Assembly (NCBI GenBank): GCA_036867785.1
Contig: CP145409.1
Location: forward strand, 744,001 to 808,000
DNA: 64,000 nucleotides
Direction: 5' to 3'
From: Plasmodiophora brassicae
Taxonomy: Eukaryota
Shown: piece by piece, positions 2,402 to 59,709 of the stretch
Numbering within the stretch: position 1 is the stretch's first letter
Layout of the letters: the number at the start of each line of letters is the position of its first letter
The notes under the pieces: model-generated
Seen by the model: the letters and a program-made list of their open reading frames with translations, nothing else
What the model was told of the DNA's origin: nothing
Database searches by the model: none
Position numbers and translations under genes: made by a program

Positions 2402-5012
2402 TCGCACGCGTATCGACCGCCGTCTTCGTCGACTCAGGCAGGTACCGTTCGCTGTACCCGTACCAGCGATCATTTTCAATTTAGGACCCGACCATAGTTT
2501 CCCACAGTCGCGAAACTGGTTGTGGAGCGCCCAAGCAGACACCGCGTACGGTAGGTAGTCGAGTCGGGCCGTCGTGGACAACGTTATACTTTTGGAGTCC
2601 GCAGAAGTGTAGACACGACGATGGCAGGGGGAGCGACCATGACTGCGTTCGACCTGTACGAGGCTGAGTCCGTGAGGCATGTGAGGGTGCCTGTGCAAGG
2701 CCCGTCGCTGCCAGGCGCTGCTTGGGGGCGCGTCGCAGGCGATCTGGTCACATTTGTGCTATTTATTCGCGAGCAGATGTCGGCGTATGATGATCAGTTG
2801 GGCGTGCGGTTGCTTGGACGGCCACATTGACGGTGATGTGCAGGCCGTATGCTCAAATAAGGGCTATTGTCGATCGTGAGTTGCAGAGAAGGTCGAACGG
2901 GATTTCGCAGCGCTCTTCGCAAATGAATCGGCATATCAAGGTGGGGAATGCAGGCTGCACTGCATTTGCTGCATTACCTGAAATGGGGCCCTTTGTGTAG
3001 TTCGCGAATGAAGTGCAATCCGTCCTGGATGCTGTATCATGTCTATTCGCCAGCCGCCGGGTGTATCGTCTCGAAATTGTGATTGGATCATCATTATCAT
3101 CATTCAGGGAGTCCTACGTATGCCCTGAACGGTCACTTTCCGTTTGCCAAATTGAACAATGCCCTGATGCAGTGTATGTGTCTCGGAGACGGTCTCGCTG
3201 GACATTCCATGATCGTCGATGAAGACGCGGCTTCACGGGTCAGAATCTGGAGAAATTCTGCAAATTGACCGAGCCACTAACGCGCGTTGTGCGTGCTTTA
3301 GGCGAGCGATACGTTATCGCGCCACTTGATTCGCTTGCTGATCTCTGACTGCTCAGACCACCTGTCAGCTCCAATGCCAAAATGTTCCACATTCTTGCTG
3401 GCACTGTGCGATCGTGAAGGAACCTCTCCGCCTGGGTTTGCGCCAAAGCACAACCTTCGTGTCCGGCCGCGAAAGGGTGCTCGCTCAATACGGCTACGAT
3501 TCGACTTGGTTGACGACGAGGAAGGCACGAATCATGCATGCGATCGCATCTGGTTCCAGAGTTTGTCAACGATTTCAGGCTTGCGAGGTCCCGTCAAAAG
3601 CTTGTAACGATTACATATCCGCAGATTCTAAGCACACAGAAGTGTTTATTGCGTCTCGGTTTGGAGCACAGATCGTTTCTTTGAATGCACGAAAGTATGG
3701 GGTGCACATCCTGTACGGTGTCTTGGCCGAGGTCGTCCTCCGTGCGGCAACTCGGCAAAACATGTCCGTCACGGTGGAGCCGGGCGGGTAAGAAGATGCG
3801 TAACGCGGCGGGATGTCCGGCGCAACCTTTCCCCAGTCATTCGGCTCGTTCCGATTTTGCGGGGCCCCGAGCCCGACACCCCGTTTCCCTCCCAGGCGGT
3901 CAGTTCTCACCGGTTCTGGCATGGTGGCGGAGGTGAGGATGATGCAGTCGGATCCCGAACGGCAAGGCCGTTATTTGCAAACCGGTGTCGTCGGGGACAC
4001 CACCGTACGTCACATAGGCATGGGCTGCAGGATCGTCGCCGGTCAGTACTGGCGGGAGCGCCAGCCCAGGCTCGGAGGCACTCTGCATGACAATCGCTCG
4101 ATGTTTTGGAGGTGGATAAGGTCATACGCATGCTCTATACAGGTATATCAGTCATGACTGAAGATCATTCGCAAGCCTGCGCTGCGGGTCATCGGCAGCT
4201 GGCTGTTTGTACGCCACCGGCCTTACCGGGAAAGACTCAGACGAGGGTGAACCAATGACAAGTTTCTTCCTCATATTCAACGTGGTCTGAGTGCTGTCTA
4301 TAGGCTACGTAACTAAGTATTTGAATGGGTCGGACGAGTAACAACATAGTCCAGCAGTATAAAACTGGCATAATGCGTTACCCGCTCTACGAACTTTGGC
4401 GCAACACTTCGTTGTGCATTGTTTTCCATGGTAACAGCTCTGCGATGTTTGTTGCGTTTCATACTATTGACGGCGGCATCGTATTTCAGTTCCCTAGAAC
4501 GAAAGACACACGTGGATGCTTAGGGATGATCTTGGGTTGTTTTAGCCTGAACAGGTACCCTTTGATAGTCTTCGGATCTATCTTGCTTGTGCTTGCGTCA
4601 TTGTCCTCGTTCTCGCACCGTCATGCTGCTAATCGACTTTATTTTGACACGAGAAGCTGAACTTGTACGGCAATTGTGAATCCAGACGTCGATAAGGCAA
4701 TGCTCGGTCAAGGACGTGTTCCCCATTAGCCCTTATCGCGCACATGCCCTGGCTCGTCTCAGCCGCCCCTGGTATTCCATTCCTGCGCCGGCACGCCCGC
4801 TCTGTCGGACGTTCGCAGAGTGGGCTGCGCGCCGCGGGTCCCGCCCAGTGTCCAGCCGGAACGGATGCGCGACCAAGAATCCCGTCCGGAACCCCTTGCC
4901 TCTACCCTCGGGGCGGGTCGGGCGGCAATTGCGCAAAGTTTCCAGATTGTCCGCAGAATCCCCGCTCCCGCGGACGCATCGTCTTCGCGCCGTCGCCGTC
5001 GTCGTCTGCCAA

Positions 5013-6143
5013 ATGTCGGCAGGCCGCGTCCGAGTCGCTTGTACGGCTTGTGCCACCAGCAAGACTCGGTGCGATGGCGAGCGTCCATGCGGACGATGTG
5101 TACAACGAGATATGGCTGCGTATTGCATTGACCGACCCGTGCACTCCATGAGGCCGCGCGAACGCTTCAGGTTGCCACCTGGAATCGCGTGTACACCTTG
5201 TAAGAAATCAAAGGTCGCCTGTGCTGCCGTACGTCCCTGTCCGCGATGTTGTCAAAGGTTCGGCGACGCCGCAGTAGTGCGCTGCGTTGACGCGCCTGTG
5301 GTCGCCGCCGCTCCCGCCACAGAAGACCCTCGGCGAAATCTGTGGCCTGAAAAGTCGTCTCCATTGGCGATGTACCGTCCAGTCCCGAAGGCGATCTCTG
5401 ACGCTTTGCGGGATTGGTGCCTACAGATGGATCCGCGCGCCATTCGACGCTTCCTATTGTCGACGCCATTGTAAGTCGTGTCGTTGTTTCAGCAGAGTCC
5501 AATGATGACCGTCGTATGCAGGGAGCCTGAGTTGACTGTGTTTATGCCACACGACGAAGCCAGACAGCTCATTGCGATCTTGAACGACATGGCTGAGACA
5601 TCAACTCTCGAACCCGAATCCGAAGACTGCTTCGATATGGACATGCTGAGCCACTACAGCAACGACGTGATTCAATGCTCCATCTTGTGGAAGCAGTCTG
5701 TCCCATTTGACTCGCCGTCTTCGGCGCAGATCCGGTTCGACAGCGACATGCGACTATCCAGCAAGGCGACCAGGGCAACGTTCAACCAGTCCGCGCTGAA
5801 GCTGTTTGGGTATGACGAAGCCGAGCTGGATCGGTACCTCTCTGGATCGGGTGAGCCGCCTGACGAAGGCCCTCTGATAATGCCTGCCTTCTGGCGGTTA
5901 TATGCACCAAGCGACTGGTTACCAATGATCGAGCGATACGTGCGCACGCTGTTTCAGAGATGGTCATCGTTCTACTGGAAGGCATCCATTATCAGGCGCG
6001 ATGGCAAGGCGATACCATGTATCAATGAGACCACTGTTTCCATCTCTCCCGACGGCAACACGGTGTCCTATTTCCTGTCAATTCGCCCAATGGACACTAC
6101 TTTTATTCCCACAGACGTACATCCAACCATCGAAATACAATAG
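5013..6143 (+). CDS. Transcription factor with two tandem Zn(II)2Cys6 clusters and a C-terminal PAS-like domain
   Basis: ACTACATSKTRCDGERPCGRC..C and ACTPCKKSKVACAAVRPCPRC..C. Intron 5471-5521 (gtaagt..tgcag) joins this in frame to FNQSALKLFGYDEAEL...IIRRDGKAIPC (PAS/PAC pattern). Confidence 0.85.
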
Positions 6144-17802: not shown

Positions 17803-20651
17803 TCAGTAATTCCACCCAGAGCGAACATTCTCTTTCCGTTGGCGGACGCGCCCGGCCATTGCTACCGTCTGGGCACCAAACGCATTCTTCAGGCGCCTCG
17901 CCGTCCCTGGTATATGAGCGCTTGATGACCGGACAGCAACCCTGCGAGGTGTTGTGGCTGTCGAATTGGCATTCCGCTCCACGACGGTTTTGGCGGACGT
18001 CGATGCCTGGAGGGGTCGGTCCACACTGGACTGCGGTGGATCTCTGAAAGGCGGTGTGACAGTCCCGACTGTTCGCGTTGTCGGCTTTGATGCCATTAAC
18101 CGCAGGGTCTCGTCGAGCTTAGCTTGCAGCATCTGCACTCGCGATGATCAGGCACAAGGGCTGCGCGTCCAACAAGTGAAGCACACACATTGGCTCGTTG
18201 AATCGATGCAGCGTGGTTCGTTTCTAGACTGGAGATTTGTTTACGCAACGTGGCGACCGTTCCGTTCTGCGAACTTTGGCCCAGTTCGCCTAGCTCCACC
18301 TAACAAATGCTTCAGATTCTCGTGATTCTCTATAGCCAAATGACCCTATGGCAAATACCTTTCGGACACGATGAGCAAACTTGGCCGTGCAAACGGATTC
18401 CGGCAGGTCGGCGGCATCAGGACTCAGATGACACAGCATAACGGTTCGGCCGTCGCCGGCTAACGAACACACGTCAGCGTTGCAAATTGTCGACGAGCAA
18501 GAAACCCTCCCTACACAAGGACTCTTGAAGGAGGTGGGTCAGTGCAGAGTTGCGGTACGGGACAAAGATTGATGCAGTAGCCGCAGATGCCCCTTTCCTG
18601 ATGATCTCGTCCCATCAGGGGTCAGATCAAGCCATACGTGGGGCCAAACGTACCGGCGCTGAACGGATCTGGAATATAGCGCTGACATTACATTTCCAAG
18701 AGCAGACAGGGACCGGTTGATGGCCCCGGCTTCTTTCAACTGGCTACCGGTGACTTCCGATCGTGCGACACGTTCCTGTAGTAATGTTCAGCAATCGGAC
18801 GCGTGAGCAAGTTCCGTCGCAGTGCCTCATGCTATACCGATCCGGCCAAATCCACTAACGTTAGACGCGCATGCTGTACCCCGCCTTTCTCGAGTTGCAG
18901 CATGACTATCGAATGCGACCTGGCAACCTCGTCACAGACAGGCGACCCTCTCAGAAACCGCTTGGCAAATACCGCGATGATCGCTGGTTCAATGCAGTGG
19001 AGCTTGTTTGCCTGGCGGCCGCAGCTCGGTCGCACAGGACTAGAACCTTCGCGGACGTGAAGTTTCAGGCACAATGGAATGGAAATACTGAGAACGATAC
19101 CTCGTCGGGGGTGGAGACTCGATGTCTCGACAGTCCTGCTACGTGAATGTTCTCGTTATCGCCTCGGATCCGCAGCGACGACGTTTCAGCACTCCCGCCG
19201 AGTAAATCTCGCAACGTATCGTTGTAGATTTCGACGAATGACGCACTGACGCTGAAACGTTCTGAAACATCACTATGCTGCATAATCGCCTAAGTGGGGG
19301 GCGTAATTCCCTGGAAATGTTGGGGGACAAGTACCTTGGTAATCTCATCAAACAAGCAAATAATGGCCCGTTGAATCAGTCCGACCGTCGATGTTCGCGG
19401 GTCTCCCGACATGGTGTACGTTTTCCCTAAAGGCGCCTTTGTCATCCCAGCAATGCAATGCATTGTCAGCGGGCCGGGCTCACCACTGCCTGTCTGACCA
19501 TAAGACATGACGGTCACATGATATCCTTCGACGCACGACTGTATGAGGGGGTGAAACTCCTTCCATACTAGTGCAACGTTAGACGGTGCAAACATCAGGT
19601 CACAAGTTAGCATACCGTCGAGCTGCGTCGATCTACTTCCAAACACATGGTCAAACTCGTACGAACGGCAGCCTGAAATGCCATTAGCGCCCAAGTCTAC
19701 ATCATGGTCCGCTGTCAGGGTGAACCTTCCAGCGTGACCGTTCGTTGATCTAAGCAGGCAACTACAGGTTCTTGGTCGTCGGACAGTGGCGGCCGCAAGC
19801 GAACAAGAACTCTGCACCGGCGTGTGAGGCACACAATCGCCACTCATGCGTGATTCCCGACCGAATGTTGCCGCGAAGGTCGATGATGTCGTTGTTCAAC
19901 TTGCGGCACCTGTCGAGCTCACTTGCCAGCGACGCTCTCAGCTTGGCGTCTTCCTGACGAAGTGACTCCTGCACCACCACCGGTGTCAAACGTGCACCGC
20001 GAATCTAGTCGTGTGTCGGCCTGCCCCACCATTTGCTGTACGAAATCGTTGCCAAACTGGCTGAGTTCGCACTGCACGCGCCGCTGCACGTCTCGGATGC
20101 CGTTCCGAAGCATTGTGATGTGGTTGCAAAGGTGCGACTTGCCCAAACGTGCGACCACGTCGGGTCTAGCGCTGGACCTCCCGGTCAACAACGTTTTCAG
20201 GGCAGCAATGCGGGAGGTCAGGGATGTCGCCAGCCCGTTATTGTCTTCTTGCTGTACAGAATAACGGCCAACCTAAGTCGCTGGATAACGTTGTCGAAAG
20301 CACATGACGCCCGTTACGTACGATGGACGCGAGCAGCGCTGTGGATGCGGACGCGATGTCGTCTATGGCAGAGCGCAGGGCGGTATCGGTCGTGGCGTGC
20401 GCGGCGGGTAGGCCATGGGGGTCGGCGCCGCCCGCCCCCGACAACTGTTGGACCTGTACCTCCAGCGACCTAGCGTGGTCCTTGACGGCCCGCAGCTCCC
20501 CCTGGAGCTTCTCGATCTGCCTGTCCCGCTCGAGCAGCTTCGTGTTGTACACGCGGTGCAGCGCCATGGCCAGCGCCGTCTGCGGGCAGGTCGACGTCTC
20601 ACCCATCGATCGTTTCCGCTTCGGGGCGGCATCGCCTGCCGGCTGCTGCAT
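17803..20651 (-). CDS. Kinesin-14 family motor (N-terminal coiled coil, KIFC/KCBP-like neck)
   Basis: Neck RKLNNDIIDLRGNIR, P-loop YGQTGSGKTYTM, spliced switch I NQRSSRSH, LVDLAGSE, AINRSLSALGNVMSAL. Start approximate. Confidence 0.92.
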
Positions 20652-20878
20652 CGGTACGGGTCGCTCTGGGACGACGTGACCTCGATGCCCCCTGAGCCCT
20701 GCACCGCACCGCCGCGCAACCACCTGCGGCGCACGGCACAACGACGACGACGCACACGGCACACCCCTGTCCCGCGCCTCTGCTCATCTCGGTCCGCGTC
20801 ATCGCGCGCGACAGTACCTGCCGATACCTGTCGCACACACCGGCAGCAATCGACGGGCGTCGCACGTAACTTTAATGC

Positions 20879-21740
20879 TTAGTTGGACGTCGACGTGGTG
20901 GAATTGGCGGCGGGCGTGTCTGTGGAGGGATTGGGCGGCGAGCTGGTTGCGGAGGCGGGCCCCGGCGCGGGCGTCTTGCCCGCCGGCGGGGACGTCGACG
21001 CGCCCGATGCCGACTGTCCCAGCAGGCTGGATCCCAACCACTCGACGAGTTTCGAGATGGCGTTCATGCCGGCGTCGGAGTCGGACGCCGACGACGACGA
21101 CGCCAACGTGGCGCTGGCCGACGACTTGTGCTTCTGCTTGCCGGATCGTTTCGACGATGACGACGAGTGGCTGCTGCTGCTGCTGCTGCTGTTGCTGCTT
21201 CCGTCTGACGGCGTCGTGCCGTTCGTCATGTTGGACGCCAGGCGCTGTACGGCCTCTGAGACCGGCGCCGAGCTATTCGCGCTGGGCTGGCCAGGCGCGG
21301 GGTCGCTTGCGTTGGCGCCCAGCCACTGGACGACATCGGAGACCGGGTCGGACGCGTTCGAAGCGGGCTGGGCCTGCGCTGGAGACGTCGGCGCGAACGT
21401 TGCGCTCTTGGGCGGCAATGACTTCGCGACAGGCGCCATTGTCTGGTTCACGTTGCCGTTGTCGACGGCGATCGGCCACGACGTCGTGTTGCCGGGCGGC
21501 GTGGGCCTCTGGTCCGACGAGTTCCCTTGCTGGTACTCGAGGGGGATCAACGGGAACGGCACCAGCAGGTCGCAGGAGGCGCCGTCGGCGGAGATCCTAA
21601 GCGGCACGGGCGACGGCAGGTTCTGCTTGGACAGCCAGAACAGAATCCTTGCCATGACGTCGTGCGGCGTCGACGTCGTCTGCGGCGTGCCGACCTGCAC
21701 CAGCGGCCGACCGTCATGCTGCTGGCCTTGCTGGCCGACG

Positions 21741-21773
<33 letters not shown>

Positions 21774-22054
21774 GTATGGGTCGGCTGCCAGGGTCGTCGC
21801 GAGGCGCCCGTGTTGCTCGCGAACACGCGGCCGCTGATCATCGGGGCGGCAGGTGGCAGCAGGTGAACGCCTGAGCCAGGTGCGCCCATGGCGCTCATCG
21901 CGGCCTGCATCGGCGGGCCACCTTGCTGCTGTCCGAAGATGCCGAGTTGGGGCGTGTCGCATTCGGCGGGCGCCGGCATCTCGAACGACAGAGTGAGCGG
22001 CGACGCCAGAGCCAGGACGACGATGGCGAGCGGTAGAGTCGGGATCTGCTGCAT
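20879..22054 (-). CDS. Intronless predicted secreted low-complexity (Q/S/T/P-rich) protein
   Basis: Signal-peptide-like MQQIPTLPLAIVVLALASPLTLS, poly-Q, poly-S, several NxS/T sequons, strong GC3 bias on this strand. Confidence 0.75.
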
Positions 22055-22382
22055 GGGCGGTTGGGGCGATCGTCTTAGGGAACTACTAGGTAGGAGAGGT
22101 CGAGCCACCCGCGGGCCTCGTCCTGCCTGGCGAGGTTGGATCGGGTACGTTGTTCTGGAGGAAACGACTGCAATATGATTATGTGGGCGTGGGCCTCTGT
22201 GGCAATCTCGACATGGCGTCATGTAGAGTCGGGTCTCCAACGATATCCTCACCGCCCCAGTCGCGTCACGACCTCGTGTCAACTTTCACATGGCCTCGCA
22301 CGGTACCGCCTGTGGTGACTCAACCGACAGATTCTCTGCGAGCGTTGGGTCTTGCATTCGGAAACAGGCGTTTATATACGCG

Positions 22383-25300
22383 TCACTGGAACGAGACGTT
22401 GCGCTCGGACCGGCTTCGTTGCATGGCGTGTCGGGGCGACTCCAGCGCCACGTTGGCCAGCTCGGCAATGTTCTCGACGTCGGTGGGCGATTCGCCCGCG
22501 TTGATGCGCTTCTTTCTCTCGAGAACGGCGAACACGTTCACGTCGGGCGTGTACCGATCGTAGGCGAACACGAGTTCGTCCGTGTGGAACGGACGGTACA
22601 CCAGCGATGTCGAGACGGTCGGCGTCGTCGCAGTCGTCGTCGTCAACCGCTTGCCGCATCCGTCCGACGCCAGCTGGTTCAGGACGGCGTCGCCGGCACA
22701 GTGTTTCATCAGCGACATGCGCTCCAACTCGGTCTGGCCGACGACCAGGTCGGGCAGCGTTAGCGACGACAGGACGGGCCACATCTGGACAATGCATTTG
22801 GCGAATTCCGACCGCACCCGGATACGGTCGCGCTTGTCGGCCCGGGCCAGCGCCTTGAACACCTGGTCCCATCGTGTCGCCAGCGATGACAGCGCGTCCG
22901 TGTCTCGCAGGATCCGGTCGACGAACAGGCGCAGAGGGACCTCCTGCCGCTGATGGGCGGCAGCCGCCGGCACCGGTTGGGCACATCGAACCGTCGCATC
23001 CGCTGCCAGGTCCATGAAGGCGTGCAACGCGTTCACCGCGTGCGCAGGCACGATGACGTCATTCGGTAACCATCGCCACGACGCCGGCTTCAGTTTCTGG
23101 GCAGCCATCGCCAGCGTCAGAGTGCGATGTGGGCGCGCCGCCGTTGACCATCGTGTACCTTCCTGGGCGGCGCCGGGCCGATCTGCATCTTCAGGATCGG
23201 CGCGGGTTTGCCCTTGAACATGGACGAGACACGGCGCCAGCCTGCACGCCGCGCCAGGATCTCGTCGTCGTGGATCGGGGCCCGGGCCCGGAACGTGCCG
23301 CCGGCGACGGCCACCGACTCGACGACCTTCTTGGCGAGCATCTCGCCGGTCAGCTCGAGCACAGCGAACCCGCACGTCATCTCGGTGACCGCGCTGGACT
23401 GTTCGCCCTCGACCATCACGGTCAGCTCGGCCAGCAACGTCGGCTGTGGGTAGGCGGTCTTGACCAGCACATGGTGCAACGCGTCGCCGTCTGGAATATC
23501 GAACTTCCACCTGTCCTCCTCGTCGGGGTCCCACCGCGCCCTGACGACGTACTGGTTGGAGACGGGCCGGTCGCCGTCCAGCAGCGCGAGTCGCAGGCGC
23601 CGGGCCTGGATCCGGTCCCTGTGCATAACGGGCGCCGGGATGCCCTCGGCGCCGATGACCTCGATCTGCAGGCAGACAGCGCTGGCGATCGGCGCCAGCA
23701 CGCCCGTCGTCCTGTCGACGTGCACGTTGGCGAACGACAGGCCGAACTCGCCCGGCGCCGACGCCAACCGCGGGGCGACGCGCGTCCCCAGGTACGATCC
23801 CGGATCGCCCTAGGGCAACCGTCAGCGTGTCTGCCTGCCTCCCTGTGCACGCTCGCGCGGCTCCTACATCGAAGGGCGCAAGCGCCGACGGGCGGAACGA
23901 GGACGGCATCTTGGAGAAGGCGGCCAGGTGCTCGACGGGTGTGGGCAGATGGGCGCGGAACAGCTTCCGGGCGAGCGCGCGCGACGCGTCGTCGTTCCGG
24001 CTGAGGAAGGCCATGAACTCCTCGAAGTCGATGGTGCCGTCGCCGTTGACGTCGGCGATGCCGACGAGCTGGTCGATGCGCGTCCCGGACAGGTTCGGGA
24101 ACTGCTGGCGAAGGACGTGGGCGAAGTCGGCCCGGGCGATCTCGCCGTCGCCGTCCGGGTCGGCCCGGGCGAACGCCGCCTGCACGCGATGCAGCGGCAG
24201 GCCCCTGGCCAGCTCGGCGCTGCTCACCTGCCGATAGTACAGGGCGAACTCGTGGACGTCGAGCGTCCCGTTCCTGTCGATGTCCGCCTGCGGGCGAGGC
24301 ATCAGTGTGTGCACATGCTATTACGGGGGACGTCTCCCGACCTTTGCGAACAGGTCGTTGATCTGCTCGTCCGACGGGTCCAGCCCGACGGCGCGTAGCG
24401 CCGTGCCCAGGTCGCGAACGGCGACCCCGCCCGCCCCGTTGTGGTCGTTCATCGCCACGAACGCGTCGAACGCGCCGCGTATGTAGTCGAGGTCGTCGTC
24501 GTCGAATGCGTCAGGGGCGCCGCTGCTGTCCGCGACGACCAGCGCCCGGCCTGGCGCGACACGATCCAGCGGGTGATCCGGTGACAGCGATCGCCTGGGC
24601 CTGGCGTCCTCCGCCGGAGGCCTATCGGCGGGTTCGCCGACCCGCTGCGCGTCGACGTGCTCCATGGTCATCGTCCGCGCCCGACTGACGCTGGGGGGCG
24701 GCGACGCGTTCGCTTTCGGCGACGGCTCCGGCTCCTCGCCGTTGGTGGTCGTATGTCGCCTGGGGTCGGTCTGCGTCTCCAGCGTTCTGGGCGGCACCGG
24801 GGCCCCGTTGTCGTCGCCTGGGATCGCCAGCGCCGGCAGCCGGAACTCGCCGGGCCCGAACCGCACAGACAGGTTCTGTGGCGGCGACGTTGGTTCCGAG
24901 GCCTTCGGTCCAGGTGCGTCGTCGGGCACAGGAGCCTTCAGGTGGTGCTGGGATCGATCCGGCGCCGGGGCGGGTGGTGGCGACGTTGCGGCCGGGTTCG
25001 CGTCCGCGTCCTCGTAGCCGAGGAGCCGGTAGACCTTCGAGAAGTTGAAGTCATCGTTGGCGCGCAGGGTGACCAGCTGCGTCAGGTGGTGGACGAGGTC
25101 GTCGGGACCGGTGGCGCCCGTTGCGATGTAGGCCTCCTGGAGCGCGTCCTCAGGCAGCCCCTGCAGAAGGTCGTTGACGTGCTCGACGACGTACGAGTCA
25201 ATGGCGCCGATGACGTCGATGAACGCGACAAAGTCGTTGAAGTCGAGCTGGGCGCGCCCGGTCCCCTTGGTCTGGTCCGACAGGATCTGCCCGACCATCT

Positions 25301-25469
25301 CCTCGCTGTACGCGTAGTGCAGGGCGCGCAGACACGCTTGTGCATCGCCGACCGGCAGGACGCCGCCCTGCGCCGACCCGTCGAACACGCGGCGAAGCTC
25401 GCCCATCTCGTCGTCCGTGTACCCGACCTTGGGCAGCACCGACAGGCGGCCGATCAGCGTGCCCGACAT
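22383..25469 (-). CDS. NPHP1: Nephrocystin-1-like protein with N-terminal EF-hand repeats
   Basis: EF loops DIDRNGTLDVHE, DPDGDGEIARAD, DVNGDGTIDFEE. NPHP1-type motifs MPSSFRPSAL, RRLRLALLDGDRPVSNQYVVRARW, EMTCGFAVL, GGT, YRPFHTDE. Confidence 0.75.
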
Positions 25470-25882
25470 TGCCGTCGCCGCCCGTCAAGGCAACCTGCCG
25501 CTGGCCGTCGGACCACAGCCCACCACACGAACGTGTGTGACGTGTGACATGCATCAAGTGTCGACCGCGCTGTGGCCATCGTGCTTGTTGAAACGCTCCA
25601 CCCCCGGGGCGAGCAAGACGGGAGCGTTGACGTCACCGCCACACAGCGGCTGGGCATCCCGCCGCGAATGGCGGATGGTCGTCGGCGCCGTGTTGAGTCA
25701 CGTTCGGTCGGTCGGGGGCTGCCGTGACGTCACACGCGGGCGGGACATGACGTATCTGGTGGCAACGTATGGGGACGCCCCGCCACAATCCTATTCTCGA
25801 CGTATCCATCGAACGTTTATTATACGTTTTCGGGGCCTCTTTGATAACAAAGCGCCGACCGGCCACTGTTAATCTTGCTATA

Positions 25883-27235
25883 ATGCAACAGCAACAGCTC
25901 ATGATCGTCTGCGGCATCGTCCTGCTGGCGGCGGCGGCGACGACGTCGACGGCGACGCACGCGACCGGCAAGGCGACCGGCAAGGCGAAGGCGCTGATCT
26001 ACACCGACAGCGGCTGGACGTACAAGCCGGCGAACGCGACGAGCAACGCGACGCAGATCGAAGGGTCCATCCAGGCGCGCGACGGCGCCAAGCTCGTCGG
26101 CTTCAACCAGACCGCCATGCGCCTTCGCCCGGCGCTGGACACCACAGCGCCGCCATGCAACTCCACGATTCGTCAGCGTGGCGCGCGAGCGCCCTCCAAG
26201 ACTCTGATTCGTCAGCGTCAGGCGGCGCCGGCGCCGGCTGTGCCGATGGCCGACGAGATCCCGGTGGTCACCGGCACCGGCGAGGTCCTGCTCCTGTCCG
26301 GTTCGGTGGTCCCCGTCAGCGCGCTGGACGGCACCGTGATCCTGGCGTCGCGTGACGCGTTGCACGTCCCGTCGTCGCAGGACGAGCTGACGGCGGCGGC
26401 GACCAGCAGCGCCCAGGGCGTCACCGCAGCGATGGACGCGGCCGCGGCGGCCATCGAGAAGCAGAACGCGGCCGCCCAGGCCGGGTTCGCGCTCGGTGCT
26501 GTGAACGACGCGACGCCGACCAGGAAATCGATGACGGCGGCAGCGGGCCAGCAAGCGCCAACGCCGGCGGCAGCGGCCATGAAACGAACGCCGATGCGCC
26601 CCTACCAGCGCCAGCGCCCGGTCGGCAACGGCAACGTCGCCACGACCGTTCCCGGGCCGTCGAACAGCGAGACCGACGCGAACATGCCGGCGCCAGTGTA
26701 CGCCAACCGTGTCGTCGTCGGCACCGCCAGCACCCAGCGCCAGGCGAACGCCAACGCCGCTGTCCAGGGTCGCCCGCGGAAGGGCATGTTCGGCGAGCAG
26801 ACCGCCATGGAACAGCAGCGACAGGCGGAGGACCAGCAGACCGACGACATCCTGCTCGCCATGCTGCTCGGCGAGGTCCCGCTCCCTGGCGCAGACCAGG
26901 CGCAGGCGCACCAGGCCGGGCGCAAGCCCCAGCACGGCAAGAAGAAGAAGGGACACAAGGCGCGTCGTTCCCACAGGAACAAGAACAAATCGGGCAGCGG
27001 CCAGGCTGGCGCGTCGGGCGTCATGTTGTCGGCCACCGGCGAAGGCGCCAGCGTAAACAACACGACCGGGGCCGACGACGACCGGGCAAAGCCGATGAAC
27101 GCGAACACGGCGGAGACCGGGCACGCGACGAGTGCGCCATCCCAGAACGGGTACGCGACGTCGGCATCGCCCACCAACAACAATGGGTATGCGACGACGG
27201 CGCCCGCGTCTGGCAGCCGCGCCTACTCGAACTAA
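25883..27235 (+). CDS. Intronless predicted secreted Ala/Thr/Gln-rich protein
   Basis: MQQQQLMIVCGIVLLAAAATTS signal-like N-terminus, N-glycosylation sequons, basic patch KKKKGHKARRSHRNKNK, C-terminal G[HY]AT repeats. Confidence 0.8.
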   Translation: MQQQQLMIVCGIVLLAAAATTSTATHATGKATGKAKALIYTDSGWTYKPANATSNATQIEGSIQARDGAKLVGFNQTAMRLRPALDTTAPPCNSTIRQRGARAPSKTLIRQRQAAPAPAVPMADEIPVVTGTGEVLLLSGSVVPVSALDGTVILASRDALHVPSSQDELTAAATSSAQGVTAAMDAAAAAIEKQNAAAQAGFALGAVNDATPTRKSMTAAAGQQAPTPAAAAMKRTPMRPYQRQRPVGNGNVATTVPGPSNSETDANMPAPVYANRVVVGTASTQRQANANAAVQGRPRKGMFGEQTAMEQQRQAEDQQTDDILLAMLLGEVPLPGADQAQAHQAGRKPQHGKKKKGHKARRSHRNKNKSGSGQAGASGVMLSATGEGASVNNTTGADDDRAKPMNANTAETGHATSAPSQNGYATSASPTNNNGYATTAPASGSRAYSN

Positions 27236-27349
27236 GCGCCTACGCCCGCGATCTTTATCAGCATAAAACCGTAACGCGATACTCGACATGGGATTTGTTG
27301 TTTGTATATACGTCTGAAGGCCAGCCGCGTTCGAGATAGGTAGACCAGA

Positions 27350-27777
27350 TTATTTGGCGGGCTCGGCAGCAGGGGCGGCCTGCTTCTTACCGGAGCGCTG
27401 GCGCAGGACGGCCTTCACGATCTTCTGCTCCTCGATGAGGAACGCACGGATGATGCGCTGGCGAACGCAGGTGCCGCAACGGGAACCGCCGTACGCCCGG
27501 GACACTGTTCGCTGGCGCTTCGAGACCGACTTCATTTCGATGGGGCGCAGAGCAGGGATCCCGTTGATCTTCAGGCCACAGTCACCGCATTTCGGCCCGT
27601 TGGCACGCTTCTTGCGGTACTGGAGAACGTTCTTGCCACCAGGGGTCTTAACAACCTTGACCTGTACGATGCATCGTTAACATGGCACGTTTCTACGCGA
27701 GGCGAAATTGGGCGATATCAAACCTTGTTGGACTTGGTGTTGTACGAGTGCCGACGGCGGTACGTCAGACGCTGCAT
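27350..27777 (-). CDS. RPL34: 60S ribosomal protein L34
   Basis: [27 protein letters not shown]...[31 protein letters not shown]. Intron 27662-27723. Confidence 0.98.
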
Positions 27778-27885
27778 ATTGTAGAGAAGCTGCGGAAACG
27801 GGTTAGATTAGATGACGGGCGCCCGAGGAGACGACAAGACCCCTACCGCACGGACACCAGCGACCAGACAATTGCTCGATCGCGG

Positions 27886-27909
27886 CTCCGTCACGGACTT
27901 GGCCGCGGA
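27886..27909 (-). promoter_or_regulatory. Candidate ribosomal-protein promoter motif upstream of RPL34 (TCCGCGGCCAAGTCCGTGACGGAG)
   Basis: 22/24 identical to 29350-29373, in the same orientation relative to its gene, 108 nt before the ATG. Confidence 0.6.
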
Positions 27910-29349
27910 ACTCCGTGGAAACAGCATTAGGGCGCGGCACGTATATGTCGGTGCGCAGGCAGTGACGTTGACACGATGTATCCATTGTCTGGAGGGGACA
28001 GCGGAACAGGGCACGTTTCCCATCTCGTTGGCGGCCAGTTAGAGGGATCTTCGGCTCCCTGATTCCCGAGTAGCGAGCCGTTAGAACCCTCTTGCCGATA
28101 CAGCCACACTACGGACGAGGTAAACACCGTCGACTGCCGATCAGCCATGGCATCAAATTTACCATTTTAAGACAATTGCGGCACACACAATCACCTTCTC
28201 AGGAGTTCACCGATGAGTGCGAATATCAACACCATCGCGTCTGCAGCATAGTCTATTGGAATCGCGGTCTAACGCAGCGTGCAATACGAGCGTCCACCCT
28301 GCACCGTGGTCCTCATAGAACGCTCAGTGAGCAGCGAGAAGACCAAATTGTAATGCCGATTTCCGAGGAACCGAATGTGGGCATCGGTGTCGCAAAGTTC
28401 GGATCAGCCAGAGGTTCTACACGTACGCATCTCCTCGACCGATATTTCCTGCACGGAAAGGTTATATTGGTATGATCTGTTCATGGGTTGTACAATATTG
28501 AAACGCCTCACGACCACCATGCCTCGTGTTACTTAAATCCACATTAGGACTTGGTATTCTTGCTTATCGAACGTTGTACGATGATCACGGGACGCAGTTT
28601 GAACGTTTAATACATCAGGCTGCGATCCCAACTAGGCGACTCTTCGTCGCGATGACTGAATTTGCCCCATCCTCCATCGGCGAACCTATTGCAATAGACC
28701 CCTGCTGCTTCTCAACGGTAACTGGCTTAATGTAGGTACATCGCCTTGGGCTGAATCAGTTAGGTTACTTGAGGAACGGGTCACGAGGTTGGAGACAGAA
28801 CGGTGGGGTGGATCATCCTCGACGGTGCAGCTGGTTGCCATATGGCCAACGACCAGGCTGGCCGCGTTGCGCCCCAATGCTAATTAGCGATCTGCTCTCC
28901 AAGCGTTCTGCGTGGATCTGTTACAAACCGAATCACACATACCAGCATGGTGGAATGCCGCGGATTAGGAATAGAACGCCAAGCTCCCGCGGCCCGTCTC
29001 CGATAACAATTGCCAGCCCCATGTAGGTATTTGCTAATATAGTGACTCTATACACACAAACCGCGACCCCTTGCAAACGGGTGTCAGCGAAGATTCATCA
29101 ACTAGAGGAACACGAACCAGTAGCATAGGGAACGACCCATCAATACCGACTCGTTCAGGTTGTTCCTGCTGGAGATGCTCGAACTGGAAGTGGCGCCCCA
29201 GAAGACGTACTTGTGTCGAAGTTTCAACCTCGACAGCACCCAACGATACGAGGGCAAGGCCCGAGTCTTCTGAATCGTTCGTTGTCTGTCATGCAGACCA
29301 GTGTTGCTGCACGCAACAAGATTAGGGCGCCTCCGTATAGTGGAACGTG

Positions 29350-29373
29350 TCCGCGGGTAAGTCCGTGACGGAG
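29350..29373 (+). promoter_or_regulatory. Candidate ribosomal-protein promoter motif upstream of RPLP2 (TCCGCGGGTAAGTCCGTGACGGAG)
   Basis: 22/24 identical to the reverse complement of 27886-27909, 82 nt before the ATG. Confidence 0.6.
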
Positions 29374-29455
29374 TCGAGCGCACGCTGCTCCAATCTCTTT
29401 GTGCATCGCGTTCCGGCGGTTTAAACTACTCTGAGATCACCCACCCCCATCCGAT

Positions 29456-29846
29456 ATGAAGCACGTCGCTGCGTACCTGATGGCTGTCCTCGGCGGCAAC
29501 GCGTCGCCGACCGAGGCGGATGTCAAGAAGATCTTGGCGGCCGGCGGCATTGAGGCGGACGCCAACCAGCTCAAGCTGCTGCTCGCGCAGGTCCAGGGCA
29601 AGGACATCGGTGAGCTCATCGCTGCCGGCAAGTCCAAGCTGTCCGCCGTCCCGACCGGCGGCGCCGGTGCAGCCGCTGGTGCTGGTGCCGGCGCAGGTGC
29701 CGGCGCCAAAGCCGAAGCCGCTCCTGAACCGGAGGAGGAGAGCGAGGAAGAGGAGGAAGAGGAAGGTATCCTCCAAACCGTTAACGCCCATCCCTCTGCA
29801 ATTACTCTAACTCACCCCGGCGCTAGGCTTCTCTCTCTTCGACTAA
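29456..29846 (+). CDS. RPLP2: 60S acidic ribosomal protein P2
   Basis: MKHVAAYLMAVLGGN...GKDIGELIAAGKSKL, Ala/Gly hinge, acidic tail. Intron 29766-29826 restores the GFSLFD terminus. Confidence 0.98.
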
Positions 29847-29912
29847 GTGTGTGCACGTTGATAACAATAAATCGTTGGAGTCATGGATGTCACCCGCATA
29901 TCCGCCTTGCGT

Positions 29913-30146
29913 TTATCGCGTTATGAATGCGACGACGAGAACGGCCGTGACAGTAGGCATGCACCAGTTGATCGGGTGCATGGCATCGATTGTCGGGGCC
30001 GGCACCAGGTCACTGGTTTTGTCGCGATGCTCAGCGACCCGGCGCTCGACTGTTGCGGACCGGGACCTGGCATAGTACTCATCGTTGTCCATGGCCAGGT
30101 ACCTGGTCAATCGCATCAAACCCTGCAGCGCCATCATTGCCACCAT
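29913..30146 (-). CDS. Possible small protein with hydrophobic C-terminus
   Basis: 77-aa ORF filling the gap between RPLP2 and the DnaJ gene. No recognisable motif. Confidence 0.25.
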   Translation of the reverse strand: MVAMMALQGLMRLTRYLAMDNDEYYARSRSATVERRVAEHRDKTSDLVPAPTIDAMHPINWCMPTVTAVLVVAFITR

Positions 30147-30303
30147 TGTGTTCGCCTCGTAACTTGTTGCTGTTCTAATTCGAGTGTGCTGCTGGGCATG
30201 GCGGATGCCACTCCCTCCCTTCCGTCTGCCGATCGTGAGATGGGTTGACCCGACGCGGCCCAGATATTATCGCCATCGTAATAATATCGGAGGGCGGCGT
30301 CGA

Positions 30304-32297
30304 ATGGCGTTGCCGTCTTCGAACTTTCGGTTCGAGTTGGGCGCCGTTGGGTACTTCAGCCGGCTGGGGTTGGAGTATGGCGCCCCGGCGAGCTCCATTG
30401 CGAAGGCGTATCGACGGGCGGCTCTGGCCGCTCACCCAGACCACGCGGCCGCCGATGTGCCAGATGACGGCAGGGCGTCCGATGTCTTCCAGGAATTGCA
30501 GACGGCGCGCGCCATCTTATCCGATGAAGATTGCCGAGCGGGATACGAGCGCATCCTGTTGCTGAGAACGTTATTGCATCAACGCGATGATGCCCATGCC
30601 GAGATCGACCCGTGGTTGGCGTACTCGCTGGTGAAGATCAACAGGAAACAGAAACGCCAGGTCCGGATCGTGACGTTCGACTTCGTCACCAGGACGGTCT
30701 CGAACTGGAACAAGGATGTCATTCGGAAGACGTTCCATTTCGAGCAGATCACGGGTTAGGGCGTCGATCCAGACCCGCTTCTGGACTAACGCGTTCGTAG
30801 ATGTCGCCGAGATCGGCACGACCAAGTTCCAGATGACGGTGCGTGTGGCAGGCACCGATGAGGAACGCGAGTACCTGTACGAGTCGCAGACACCTCGGAC
30901 GAATGCCGCTGTCTGCCGAATCCTTCGCGGCATCCGAAACGGTGATCCTGATTGGACGGCGCATCGCCAAATGGTTCTGACGGGCCGCTCCAGACGACCT
31001 GATCATAAGCCGGGACGATCGCGTCGTCCCTGAGAGGAGTTACCTGAAAGGGCCGGTTGCAAAGAAGAAGGTCCAGGAGAGCACTCATTGTAATGGCGTA
31101 GCGTTTGCTGACGTTACGCGTGCGACGCAGAAGACGGCGCAGGGGCCATCCCTTCGAACGACCTGGGTGACGCGTTCGGTTATGATTGGTGCCAGCAACA
31201 TTCTCGTGTTCAGGGACGCCCAGTTCAAGTCGCTGGTGCAATGTATAGCGCATCGCGACCTGCAGGTGCCGCCTGCCCCTGTCGAGGGTGCCCAGGCCCA
31301 GGCCCTCACACTACGTTGGGACAAGACGAGGTGTGACACCCCTGCCAGCGGTACGTTGCCTGAACAATACGCCTGACATGTCCTGCAGTGGCCCGGGCTC
31401 CAAAGACCCAGCGATCACAATGCGGTTCGATACCGTCGATAAGTACCTGACGTGGTTGGAAATCATTCGACGTGTTGTGGTGCGCGCCCATTCCGCAACG
31501 CCACCCAGGTCGTGGTAAACTGACATCGGCGGCCCGTTATCTGCTGACGTACTCTGTTTGCAGGCCCGGTGACCTGTTGCTGTCCCCGATTCGCAACGCG
31601 AAATCGGACCCATGGTCGGGCCCAGAACCGTTGAGGATTGAGTATGCGGTCCATCCGCTACCAGAGGCCAACGGCGCCGCCAGCAGCAACGCGAACGACA
31701 GCGCTGTCGACGCTGTTGTTGTGGCTGCGTTGTCAGATGAAGACAGTTCGGTGTCGGAGGCATCATCCAATGGGCACGCGCACGGCGACGACGACGAGAT
31801 CTCAAGCAATACCGATACCCGAAGCCACACGAACGATAACACGGGCCTGGAAAGAAACACCAACGGCGGCATCGCATATCAGGGTAGGTCCCAGGGCTGT
31901 GCGCTGCCGTTGTCACAACAGCGGGCTTACATGAGTACCACCAGCTCGACGAGTGCCGCCGAGTCGCGTGAAGTCCAATGACCCAGCTCCAGTGGTACGC
32001 GACGAGGCTGTGAGAGGCGTGCCCCCGGTCCGGATCCGGTCGGAACCTGCCGTGACGTTAACAACCCGGCCTGATCCGAACGGCGACGAGAACCCGACGC
32101 TGATTCTGCAACTGGTGACGGTTCGCGAAGAGATCAACAACCTCCGCCGTCGTCTACATCTGCTACAGAAGCACGAGAAAGAATTGATGGTCGAACGAGA
32201 ACGACAGTCCGGCCTGGCGCAGCATCGTACCGGGTTCCTATCCGACATCGCGTCTAAGATGAAGTCTCTGTTCTCCAACCAGTCAACGTATCTGTAA
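30304..32297 (+). CDS. J-domain (DnaJ) protein with PH-like domains and C-terminal coiled coil
   Basis: IAKAYRRAALAAHPDH...FQELQTARAILSD (HPD motif); YSLVKINRKQKRQVRIVTFD (PH-like); second PH-like exon set (TWVTRSVMIG...KYLTWLEII); LVTVREEINNLRRRL. Confidence 0.8.
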
Positions 32298-46850: not shown

Positions 46851-48819
46851 TTAATGTCCCAATGCCTTCAGCTGCTCGCGTATGCCAGCTTCTCTGCCAA
46901 GCTTGTCCTTCTGTTCAGGCGTGAGCGACAGCGACGGGTCCGCCTTGATAGCCTCCTTGAGTTGTTCGATCTGCCGCAGCTTCTTGAGGAGGCCCTTGGC
47001 GGCTTTCGCGGAATCCGCCGAGGGGGTCGTCGCTTCTTCAGCAGCGGGCGCAGGTTCTTCGGCAGTAGCTGAATCGTTGGTGCTAGCTGTATCGTTGGTT
47101 GCAGAATTCCTTGCCCGGCGCTCCCGGCGAGCCTGATTCCTAGAGGCCTTCTTTGGGTCTGACGTCTTGGGTGCACTGGTCGCAGGCAAGTCCTGGGTGA
47201 TTTGAGGTCCGCCACTTTGGACGTTACGAAGCTGTTGCAGCATGGCACTGATTCCGTTCGTTGAACCCGATCCTGATGCCGCCGCTGCCGCTTCTCGAGC
47301 CTTTGGCGGACGATAGGCGGTGGTCTTGGATGCGCCTGCGGCAGAGATCTGGGACGCTTCCGAAATGTCTTTCGACTTGGCCAGGACCTCGGGCGACGAT
47401 GGCTCATTTGGGTACAGGGACTGTTCCTGCAAGGCGACGAACTGCACGTCGACTAACTTCTCGAAGTCGTGCTTAACGAGCAGTTCGCCATGGTACTTGA
47501 ACACGCTGAATCCGTTATCGACCTGAAGGAAATCGATTAGCGAAGCGAGAACGATCGTGCGTCATGGGGTGTGGTCATACCCGACGCCATGGAAACAGCC
47601 TAGCAGTTACGAGGCTGGACGAATCGGGCGACCACATGACGAATTTGCTGCCATGGTCGGATGCAGTGCCAAGGAGCCTCTTGGCGTCGCGATCAAAGAA
47701 CCACATGCTTCCTGGCAGGTTTCCGTACCCACCAACTAGCAGATACCGACCCGACGGGCTCCAGCGCACAGTATTCCATGCATTCTTCCCTAAATCGAGG
47801 ACGCACTTCCCTGAGGAGGACGCACATATCCAGGCACGTCGGCCGCAAATCACGGCGAACTCGCGCTTGTTCTTCACTGGGTTCCATTCGACATCGGCGC
47901 AAGCACCATCTGTGGCAGCGGAACAAATTGTCGACGCAGGTGTAACACCATCAGCTGGCAGAATAAACAGTGAAGCCGTTCCTAAACATCTGCATTAGCT
48001 TACGGTAGCAGTAGCAATAGTAAACAACGAAGTACCGTAGTAGGATTGTCCTGAGGCGTCATGGGCAGCCGACGCTTTTACCAGAGCAGCGTGCCCAGCT
48101 GGCGCCCAGAACACTTCGACATCGTCAGACTGATAGAACGATTTCGAGCAGACAACGGTGTCGAACGCGGCGACATTGTAGATCGAACATTTCGAGGGCT
48201 GGCCCTTCTTCCCGGCAACGAGTACCACAACGCGGTAAGACGGCACCGTCGATGGGCCCAACCAAAACCGTATCATGTCTGGAATGTGTAACCTCCAGAC
48301 ATAAGGTCGCCGCTCGTTATCAGGCACCGACGCTTCCAGGTCGTATCCGAGTAGCTCGGATCCGTTCAGGAGCCATGCTGTTTTCTCGTCCGAAGAGAAC
48401 TGTACTGGGTTCCCGGCGCTCTTCTCCAGTCGTTTCCTTCTGGATCGAAGCAGACATGCACCGGTGGCCACTGACCACACTGCCATGTTGTTGTCGGTCT
48501 CGCTGGTGAACTTCCGCCATGTGCACACATACGCGGATTTCGGCGAGAAACAGACAAAGGAGACGCCAGGTTCCGGAATGGACACTGCCGGTGCTGGGAC
48601 ATCACGCTTACCGACAGCGATATCCTCCGATCGGATGAGGTGAAGGCTAGACGACTCCTCGCCGGCGATCGCCAGGAACTGTCCATCCGACGACCACGCA
48701 TTGTACGATCCAGCACCGATTTTCACATCGATGCGCTGCATCGACTGAAACGGCGGCGATGCAATCGAGTACGCATCGGACGAGACGCTGCTCAGCAAGA
48801 CGGGCGACAGCATCGACAT
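46851..48819 (-). CDS. EIF2A: Eukaryotic translation initiation factor 2A
   Basis: DASGQSYYG, NTVRWSPSGRYLLVGGYGNLPGSM, WSPD...RVDNG, AYRPPKAR, KKLRQIEQLK...EQKDKL. Confidence 0.93.
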
Positions 48820-48975
48820 CTGAGTTGGGCGCCGTGCAAATGAGGCCTCACAGTCCGCCACGGACTCCGCGCCGGATTGTCTGCCCCGCGGTTCGGTACC
48901 TGGCTGGCGGCTTCCCAATACCTCTAGGCAGCCTGACAGTCACGTTCTGCGCTGTCGCCAATCGTTGCAGGCCAT

Positions 48976-58820: not shown

Positions 58821-59709
58821 GTACATAATAATGTACCCATATCATAACGGCCGTCTGGGTTGCGTTTGCGGAGCTAACAATTATCATACATTCTCCCTGA
58901 CTTGTAAAACCCGCAGGCTCGAGAAGTTTAGGGCGCGCGTCATATAATAATTTCCTGAAGTCCGTGGCGGATACCGCCACGGTATCCGGCTATCCTGCGG
59001 CGGTGCGCGCCCACCTCAACGTCAGACGCGCTATTGGTTCTGTGTGCGACGGTTCTACCTGCGTCGTAGAACTGTTTCAGTCTCGACAATGGGGTCGTAA
59101 TAGTGTACGGGTATCTTGTATCACGATACTGTTCCCGAAGCCAACTGGAGATCTCAACGCCGTCATCTGGGCCGCCTCGTGTTGCTCTCGGTAGGCCTGG
59201 TTGAAATTACATGCTGTGCATAACAGTTCCCTCTGCATGATGTCTTTCAGTCCTTTTTTCCAATTTGCAATGACGACAATTCCGATACTTCCTGACAGTT
59301 CTTTGTTGCTACGTTGACCATCATTTGTCTTGCGCTGGAATGCTGACGTTTTGATGCAGGTTTTGAACGTCACGGCTGTCGAGATGGTTTGGGAGAACAA
59401 CGATAGGTACAGCTCCTTTTCTTTGCATTTCTAGAAGGCACGATCGTTTTTCCGTTGCATGATGACGATATTTCAGTCTTCAACCCGAGCTACGGCCCTG
59501 AAGATTTCAGTTTCAGCCTTGTCTGACGCAACGTTCTTCACAATTATCTCCTGAATTGTCTGATAACCAGATATAGTAATTGTCGTGTTGCATAGGGCAT
59601 AGAACGTCATGTGAGTTGTCTAATTTATCCCTGCAATGGAGTTTCCCATTGGCAATAAAGAATGTGCGTTTCGACGGAATTGGGCCTGGTGACATGTGGC
59701 GAATATGTA

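Follow-up and report, generated by a model that had tools for sequence, protein, structure and literature searches.

How the genes for ribosomal proteins (RPs) are held in step is a question common to every eukaryote, in which around 80 scattered RP genes need concerted expression, and the signals that bring this about are known in few lineages and differ widely between them. The question is raised here by a stretch of 64,000 nucleotides of Plasmodiophora brassicae (assembly GCA_036867785.1, contig CP145409.1, positions 744,001 to 808,000 of the forward strand; referred to as the window, to which all positions given below refer), in which two divergent RP genes, RPL34 and RPLP2, are preceded by the same 24-bp element. 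We found no description of an RP promoter motif for P. brassicae or Rhizaria in full-text searches of the literature (supplements not included), and the literal strings of the motifs described below matched only primers and an unrelated spliced leader in papers. The element turned out to be accompanied by a second, telomere-like box, and its core to recur at two other translation-related units within the window. Probably, these boxes constitute a two-part promoter module that acts at the DNA level and is common to genes of the translation machinery.

A 24-bp element shared by two ribosomal protein genes

The element can be summarized by the pattern TCCGCGGNNAAGTCCGTGACGGAG, which has two exact matches in the window. 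One of them, element A, precedes RPL34 on the minus strand (27886-27909), and the other, element B, precedes RPLP2 on the plus strand (29350-29373). The two are identical in 22 of the 24 positions and the mismatches are confined to the two N positions of the pattern. A third match was not present in the window and 100 dinucleotide shuffles produced no match at all, with as many as three mismatches allowed in both cases. The elements are inverted to each other and each is oriented toward its own gene, with a gap of 108 nt between element A and the RPL34 start codon (27777, minus strand) and of 82 nt between element B and the RPLP2 start codon (29456). An earlier note on this DNA, made from the letters alone, had proposed a shared element with this identity, these distances and the same orientation relative to each gene, and the coordinates and the shuffles agree with that description. 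The dyad TCCGT-G-ACGGA and the TCCGCGG site that it had named were likewise read in the 24-bp elements. The core palindrome, TCCGTGACGGA in element A, is found at 27887-27897 and at 29362-29372, respectively, and in element A it starts 12 nt after TCCGCGG (start to start).

The earlier identification of the two genes also holds. Exon 2 of RPL34 matches the Pfam family Ribosomal_L34e (E=7e-33), whereas RPLP2, encoding the acidic ribosomal protein P2, has a match to Pfam Ribosomal_60s and its best solved relatives in the PDB are all P2. The RPL34 transcription unit covers 27289-27860 on the minus strand, with a coding sequence composed of 27777-27722 and 27659-27350 and an intron at 27660-27721. 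The RPLP2 unit covers 29406-29844 on the plus strand, with the start codon at 29456, an intron at 29764-29824 and the stop codon at 29842-29844.

The proximal box recurs at a fixed phase

The shorter pattern AAGTCCGTGRCGGA, allowing up to one mismatch, has four matches in the window where 0.04 would be expected: those within elements A and B, one at 58958-58971 (+) and one at 48854-48867 (-). The palindrome TCCG-N3-CGGA (TCCGNNNCGGA) is found five times in the 64 kb and all five matches fall at the same four sites, i.e. those of RPL34 (site A), RPLP2 (site B), a small nucleolar RNA (snoRNA) locus (site C) and the gene for eIF2A (site D). For this core box it is the placement rather than the count that carries the weight. 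Site D (48854-48876, minus strand) contains two tandem TCCG-N3-CGGA units, at 48866-48876 and 48854-48864, which are 12 nt apart; the proximal unit, GAGTCCGTGGCGGA, lies 40 nt before the eIF2A start codon at 48813. At site C (58958-58983, plus strand), AAGTCCGTGGCGGA comes first and a second unit, ACCGCCACGGT, follows in inverted orientation; here, too, the CCG units are 12 nt apart. In fact, all four sites have a second CCG/CGG unit whose start is exactly 12 nt away from that of the main unit. The second unit is TCCGCGG, located upstream, at RPL34 and RPLP2, TCCGGCGCGGA, also upstream, at site D, and the inverted ACCGCCACGGT, located downstream, at site C. The proximal TCCG-N3-CGGA box mostly has AAG or GAG directly ahead of it.

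A telomere-like box upstream of the proximal box

A second box, ATTAGGGCGC, is located 16 nt beyond the 24-bp element at site A (27926-27935) and 19 nt beyond it at site B (29321-29330). The earlier note had put this box some 16-20 nt further upstream in both promoters, and that position is correct, but its orientation has to be amended: both copies lie on the plus strand and thus have opposite orientations relative to their genes, being inverted with respect to RPL34 and in the sense of RPLP2. The copies are therefore direct repeats, unlike the 24-bp elements, which are inverted. The independence of orientation had been overlooked, as had the likeness to a telomere repeat that is discussed below. 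A variant of the box, TTTAGGGCGC, occurs at site C (58927-58936, plus strand), and the spacing between the common part, TTAGGGCGC, and the AAGTCC of the core box is 26 nt at site A, 28 nt at site B and 21 nt at site C.

The exact sequence TTAGGGCGC is found three times in the window versus 0.35 times expected, a number that was reached in none of 100 shuffles. All three copies belong to RPL34, RPLP2 and the snoRNA locus, each 21-28 nt from the AAGTCC core box, and in 1,000,000 random placements the three never all came as close as 60 nt to a core box. The bare hexamer TTAGGG was not enriched in the window (14 versus 11.1 expected). The TTAGGG at sites A and B and the TTTAGGG at site C represent 6 and 7, respectively, of the 8 bases of TTTTAGGG. 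Because two genome papers report TTTTAGGG as the telomere unit of P. brassicae (PMC11191646, PMC6823432), the distal box may be considered an interstitial telomere-like motif. Only the snoRNA site has, between its telomere-like and its proximal box, a TATA-like run, TATAATAA (58944-58951, plus strand).

Genes and units that carry the boxes

To the two RP genes, the recurrence of the core box adds eIF2A and a C/D box snoRNA candidate. The eIF2A gene covers 46854-48813 on the minus strand, with an N-terminal exon at 47998-48813 and an eIF2A domain that continues in 46854-47561. Its product was recognised by the Pfam eIF2A domain, and the best solved relatives are the eIF2A proteins of fission yeast and human (3wj9, 8dys). 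Site C lies in an 890-nt gap between the convergent 3' ends of an ABC transporter gene (~58820) and a molybdopterin (Mo-co) oxidoreductase gene (~59710), and no protein-like frame was present within this gap. Around 480 nt downstream of site C, and on the same strand, we found the snoRNA candidate (59453-59531, plus strand), which combines a C and a D box with a terminal stem of 6 bp. A scan of both strands for C/D units yielded three candidates in the window versus 0.26 per composition-matched shuffle, the other two having stems of 4 bp. The candidate aligns end to end with several Rfam C/D families, all below the gathering threshold, the best being Afu_455 (25.6 bits versus a gathering value of 48, E=0.025); at the gathering threshold, Rfam gave no match over the whole window. 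A stretch of 18 nt that comprises the guide and the D box is identical to the Afu_455 consensus, which is what a conserved guide for ribosomal RNA methylation would look like. A weaker C/D-like unit with a 3-bp terminal stem was read by eye at ~59229-59300 (+), around 230 nt upstream of the candidate. Judged from their sequences, the two units suggest a snoRNA cluster or a host gene between the two convergent genes.

To make an inventory of the remaining genes, Pfam was run in two passes, covering 100 frames of at least 150 amino acids and 118 of 345 shorter frames that were picked by codon-position G+C. Among the ~30 genes of the window, the translation-related units recovered in this way, together with the snoRNA candidate, all carry the box, and the other ~26 genes lack it at up to one mismatch. 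Further ribosomal or translation genes were not found among the ~30 genes in the two passes. A WD40 gene (38455-39740) that was considered as a candidate for the ribosomal protein RACK1 was ruled out, as it encodes a true G-beta subunit. The regulatory motif that the earlier note had suggested for RP genes is supported within the limits of the 64 kb, and it reaches beyond these genes to eIF2A and a C/D snoRNA candidate.

Position of the boxes relative to the transcripts

Words sampled from 27300-29900 were recovered to a fraction of 0.99-1.00 in 14 DNA-type runs (5 studies) and of 0.52-0.58 in five RNA-like runs. Four RNA-like runs were compared with 27000-30500. The boxes themselves had no contig cover in these four runs, an absence that was not counted as evidence. 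The RPL34 intron was confirmed in all four runs and the RPLP2 intron in two of the four.

One of the RPL34 contigs stops at 27790 and ends in a loose stretch, the first 13 letters of which equal 27848-27860, followed by sequencing adapter. RPL34 RNA therefore reaches at least 27860, 26 nt from the 24-bp element. The same 13 letters point to a GT..AG intron of ~57 nt in the RPL34 5' leader (27790-27846, minus strand), preceded by a first exon of at least 14 nt. In two studies, the RPLP2 contigs start at 29406 and 29407, which leaves 33 nt to the 24-bp element. RNA contigs at 29406-29407 and at 27748-27791 run on in letters that are unlike the window and that differ between the runs. Rather than a common spliced leader, these ends probably represent chimeras with transcripts of the host or of another source that arose in assembly.

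Most of the spacer between the two RP genes is taken up by a transcript of its own (27929-29038, plus strand), which is spliced, contains no long open reading frame (ORF) and was seen in all four runs, at a depth of 2-20 versus hundreds to thousands for the RP genes. It begins at the telomere-like box of site A and its intron (28118-28169) leaves a GT..AG joint, 28117/28170, that assigns it to the plus strand. It looks like a divergent non-coding RNA from a bidirectional promoter.

A probable two-part promoter module and the alternatives

We favour the reading as a composite promoter because the distal box is free in orientation, because the palindromic box faces the gene close to the 5' limit of the RNA evidence, and because the combination recurs at functionally related genes. 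The distal part of the module would be the telomere-repeat-like box WTTAGGGCGC, acting in either orientation, and the proximal part the palindromic TCCG-N3-CGGA, 21-28 bp from the distal box and with its second CCG/CGG unit at 12 bp. The proximal box faces the gene, 40-108 bp ahead of the start codon, and is at most 26 bp (RPL34) or 33 bp (RPLP2) further upstream than the RNA evidence extends. The sequences of the boxes, their non-random co-occurrence and the genes downstream of them are matters of observation. From these we infer the factors, a role in initiation and a regulon that might extend genome-wide. In such a scheme, a Myb-type telomere-repeat-binding factor (Tbf1/Teb1/TRB-like) would bind the distal box and a dimeric reader of everted CCG/CGG half-sites, possibly of the Zn2Cys6 type, the proximal one. 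Both would jointly set and drive initiation by RNA polymerase II, with the outcome of a coordinated expression of RP genes, eIF2A and at least one snoRNA gene.

A number of points argue against the module. It is based on only four sites in one 64-kb window, and at one of these, site D, there is no TTAGGGCGC box nearby. The snoRNA unit was recognised through the motif and does not count as an independent test, unlike the protein-coding cases, of which there are three (RPL34, RPLP2 and eIF2A). Taken by itself, the count of TCCGNNNCGGA is not significant (5 versus 2.0 expected, with 7 of 100 shuffles reaching 5), and TTAGGGCGC at up to one mismatch is not enriched in the window (8 versus 11.4 expected). 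On the side of the transcripts, the runs consist of assembled contigs, which are unable to map transcript ends. Position 27860 represents a minimum 5' extent of RPL34 rather than a mapped start, because adapter junctions also occur within the coding sequence, and the unlike loose ends on the RPLP2 contigs reduce their 5' position to a hint. In addition, at 80 metagenomic RPL34 loci (39-77% identity) neither box was present upstream, although these relatives are distant. Finally, the 22/24 identity of elements A and B could in part reflect a local inverted duplication.

The last point can be carried further, in that the likeness of A and B would then be nothing but the neutral leftover of an inverted duplication of one promoter segment, devoid of shared function. 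The identity itself and the loosely alignable flanks (TCGAGC, CAAT-TCT) go beyond what a binding site needs and are in line with this. Nevertheless, sites C and D are 19-31 kb away, have unrelated flanks and share only the core and its 12-bp phasing, while the telomere-like box recurs at site C, and we give a purely neutral origin a very small chance. Even less credit is due to the alternative that the earlier note had offered, namely that the 24-bp copies are the terminal inverted repeats of a 1.5-kb mobile element between the RP genes. The inverted repeat does exist (arms 27883-27909 and 29350-29376, 27 nt, 89% complementary, 1440 nt apart) and the interior has a G+C content of 55% versus 66% for the left flank. 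However, the bases that flank the repeat differ, so that, as the note had itself remarked, there is no target-site duplication; the 1440-nt interior has no second copy in the window; the longest interior ORF lacks a Pfam match (E up to 0.01), and no transposase was seen. The neighbouring TTAGGGCGC boxes form a direct and not an inverted repeat, and the core box also occurs unpaired, at 48854 and 58958. Moreover, the interior produces the spliced low-level transcript described above, and no empty site was encountered in 14 of 14 DNA-type runs, 13 of which may be the source sample. A mobile element is therefore hardly believable at this locus.

More weight may be given to the possibility that the boxes are a general core-promoter element, a TATA substitute of strongly expressed or housekeeping genes that is not specific for translation. 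The proximal box, at no more than 26 and 33 bp from the furthest 5' RNA evidence, is found where core elements lie, and with only ~30 genes examined the specificity is thinly sampled. It also fits that HomolD, an RP promoter element of fission yeast to which we return below, is present at 11.6% of all protein genes (PMC4138321). Yet all five core matches lie at translation-related units and none at the other ~26 genes, and we consider this explanation unlikely. The boxes might also act in the RNA, as a hairpin in the 5' leader (UCCG-UGA-CGGA) that controls translation or stability in a way similar to the TOP-type control of animals. In favour of this, the 5' extent known from the RNA is only a minimum, and the core is able to form a 4-bp stem with a 3-nt loop. 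On the other hand, so short a hairpin would be weak, one of the carriers is an untranslated snoRNA locus, and the partner box occurs in both orientations, which fits recognition at the level of the DNA and not a signal in the RNA. Control by such a hairpin is thus highly improbable.

Candidate readers of the CCG/CGG sites

CCG/CGG half-sites are the sites read by Zn2Cys6 proteins, and everted CCG..CGG arrangements are known from the Pdr1/Pdr3 element TCCGCGGA and from the Leu3 site CCG-N4-CGG. In the same manner, the TCCG-N3-CGGA box and, at sites A and B, TCCGCGG are everted CCG/CGG pairs with T..A flanks, and the paired half-sites come at a fixed spacing, with TCCG-N3-CGGA at four of four sites and the second CCG unit at 12 nt. 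P. brassicae is not a fungus, and the likeness is one of sequence only. No Zn2Cys6 factor is known to govern RP genes. The window itself encodes a protein of this type in a non-fungal eukaryote: the product of an ORF at 4680-5471 (+) scores 31.9 bits with Pfam Zn_clus (cut-off 21, E=1.4e-7), contains two six-cysteine clusters and is a candidate reader of CCG/CGG sites. That a Zn2Cys6 protein may read the proximal box is a plausible possibility.

Relation to known ribosomal protein promoter systems

Three known systems invite comparison, and the RP promoter of fission yeast is the nearest to the module in its layout. There, HomolD (CAGTCACA/G) acts instead of a TATA box at a distance of 39-52 bp ahead of the start site, and HomolE (AGGGTAGGGT) is found in either orientation another 0-32 bp upstream (PMC10253590). 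HomolD is common to RP and C/D snoRNA genes and has the invariant core AGTCAC, and the factors acting at the RP promoters are Rrn7 and Fhl1 (PMC10253590, PMC4138321). The boxes found here are similarly two-part, with a G-rich, telomere-like upstream box that occurs in both orientations, at 21-28 bp versus 0-32 bp. The proximal box would likewise take the place of a TATA box, and RP genes plus a C/D snoRNA, in our case a candidate, may be served. The sequences are different, however: AGTCAC is absent and replaced by TCCG-N3-CGGA, with GTCAC alone being shared, at sites A and B only, and the upstream box is TTAGGGCGC rather than AGGGTAGGGT. Furthermore, the HomolD distances were measured from mapped starts, whereas the 26 and 33 bp reported here are relative to contig-based RNA extents, not to mapped starts.

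The site II element of plants has the sequence TGGGCC/T. In combination with this element or with TEF elements, the plant telo box (AAACCCTA) occurs in the promoters of almost every RP gene and of rRNA-processing and snoRNA genes (PMC3022908). The distal box resembles it as a short interstitial telomere-like motif that has a fixed topology with a second element and is found at RP genes and a snoRNA candidate. The telo box equals a complete telomere unit and is mostly located in the 5' untranslated region, downstream of its partner. In P. brassicae, the box is upstream of its partner and represents 6-7 of the 8 bases of TTTTAGGG with CGC added, and the partner is unrelated to site II. In Candida albicans, Tbf1 acts at the palindrome TTAGGG-N6-CCCTAA with the assistance of Cbf1 (PMC2834713). 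In C. albicans and its relatives, a site with TTAGGG is the key element of RP promoters and is employed at C/D snoRNA genes as well (PMC2834713, PMC4138321). With these Tbf1 sites, the module would share a TTAGGG-containing RP-promoter element, the use at snoRNA genes and a second factor. Unlike the C. albicans palindrome, there is a single TTAGGGCGC, and it is paired with an unrelated CCG/CGG palindrome. By its sequences, the predicted module appears to work like the fission-yeast, plant and Candida systems but to belong to none of them.

If the module holds genome-wide, it would be the first promoter code for the group, would bring to three the lineages with a telomere-like box as a mark of ribosome genes, and might serve as a tag for snoRNA genes and for unannotated RNA polymerase II promoters; the plant telo box is a useful mark of cryptic promoters of this kind (PMC3022908). 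A far-reaching extension would be that a rhizarian parasite runs its whole ribosome and translation regulon (RP genes, snoRNA genes, initiation factors) by one composite code, in which a telomere-binding Myb factor reads a box derived from the telomere repeat, and a Zn2Cys6 dimer that replaces the TATA box reads everted TCCG..CGGA units in 12-bp phase. We regard this as a rather improbable conjecture. If true, it would represent the first code of a ribosome regulon known from Rhizaria, and a zinc-cluster factor of the 'fungal type' would for the first time be seen as the master regulator of ribosome synthesis. It would also make a third independent lineage, after plants and fungi, in which telomere-repeat binding is tied to ribosome production.

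Distant relatives and other features of the window

The composite TTAGGGCGC-N18-32-AGTCCGTGRCGGA had no matches in metagenome contigs and none in prokaryote genome contigs; the DNA of the organism is apparently outside both collections. Of the 80 metagenomic RPL34 loci, all of which lacked TTAGGGCGC as well as RPLP2, three had matches at one mismatch, located inside or downstream of the gene, and one had TCCGNNNCGGA, ~700 nt downstream of the match. TTAGGG or CCCTAA occurred within 600 nt upstream at 7 of 53 metagenomic loci versus 2 of 38 control stretches, a comparison that is uninformative. These relatives are probably too distant to share a lineage-specific promoter code; conservation was not found among them, which lends no support either way.

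As for the surroundings of the locus, the region 20000-28000 has a G+C content of 65-68% versus 52-60% elsewhere in the window and contains a large EF-hand gene on the minus strand; it ends at RPL34. Around 300 nt upstream of the gene for the G-protein beta subunit there is a GT-rich microsatellite at 38040-38105, made up of GGGTGTGT-like units.

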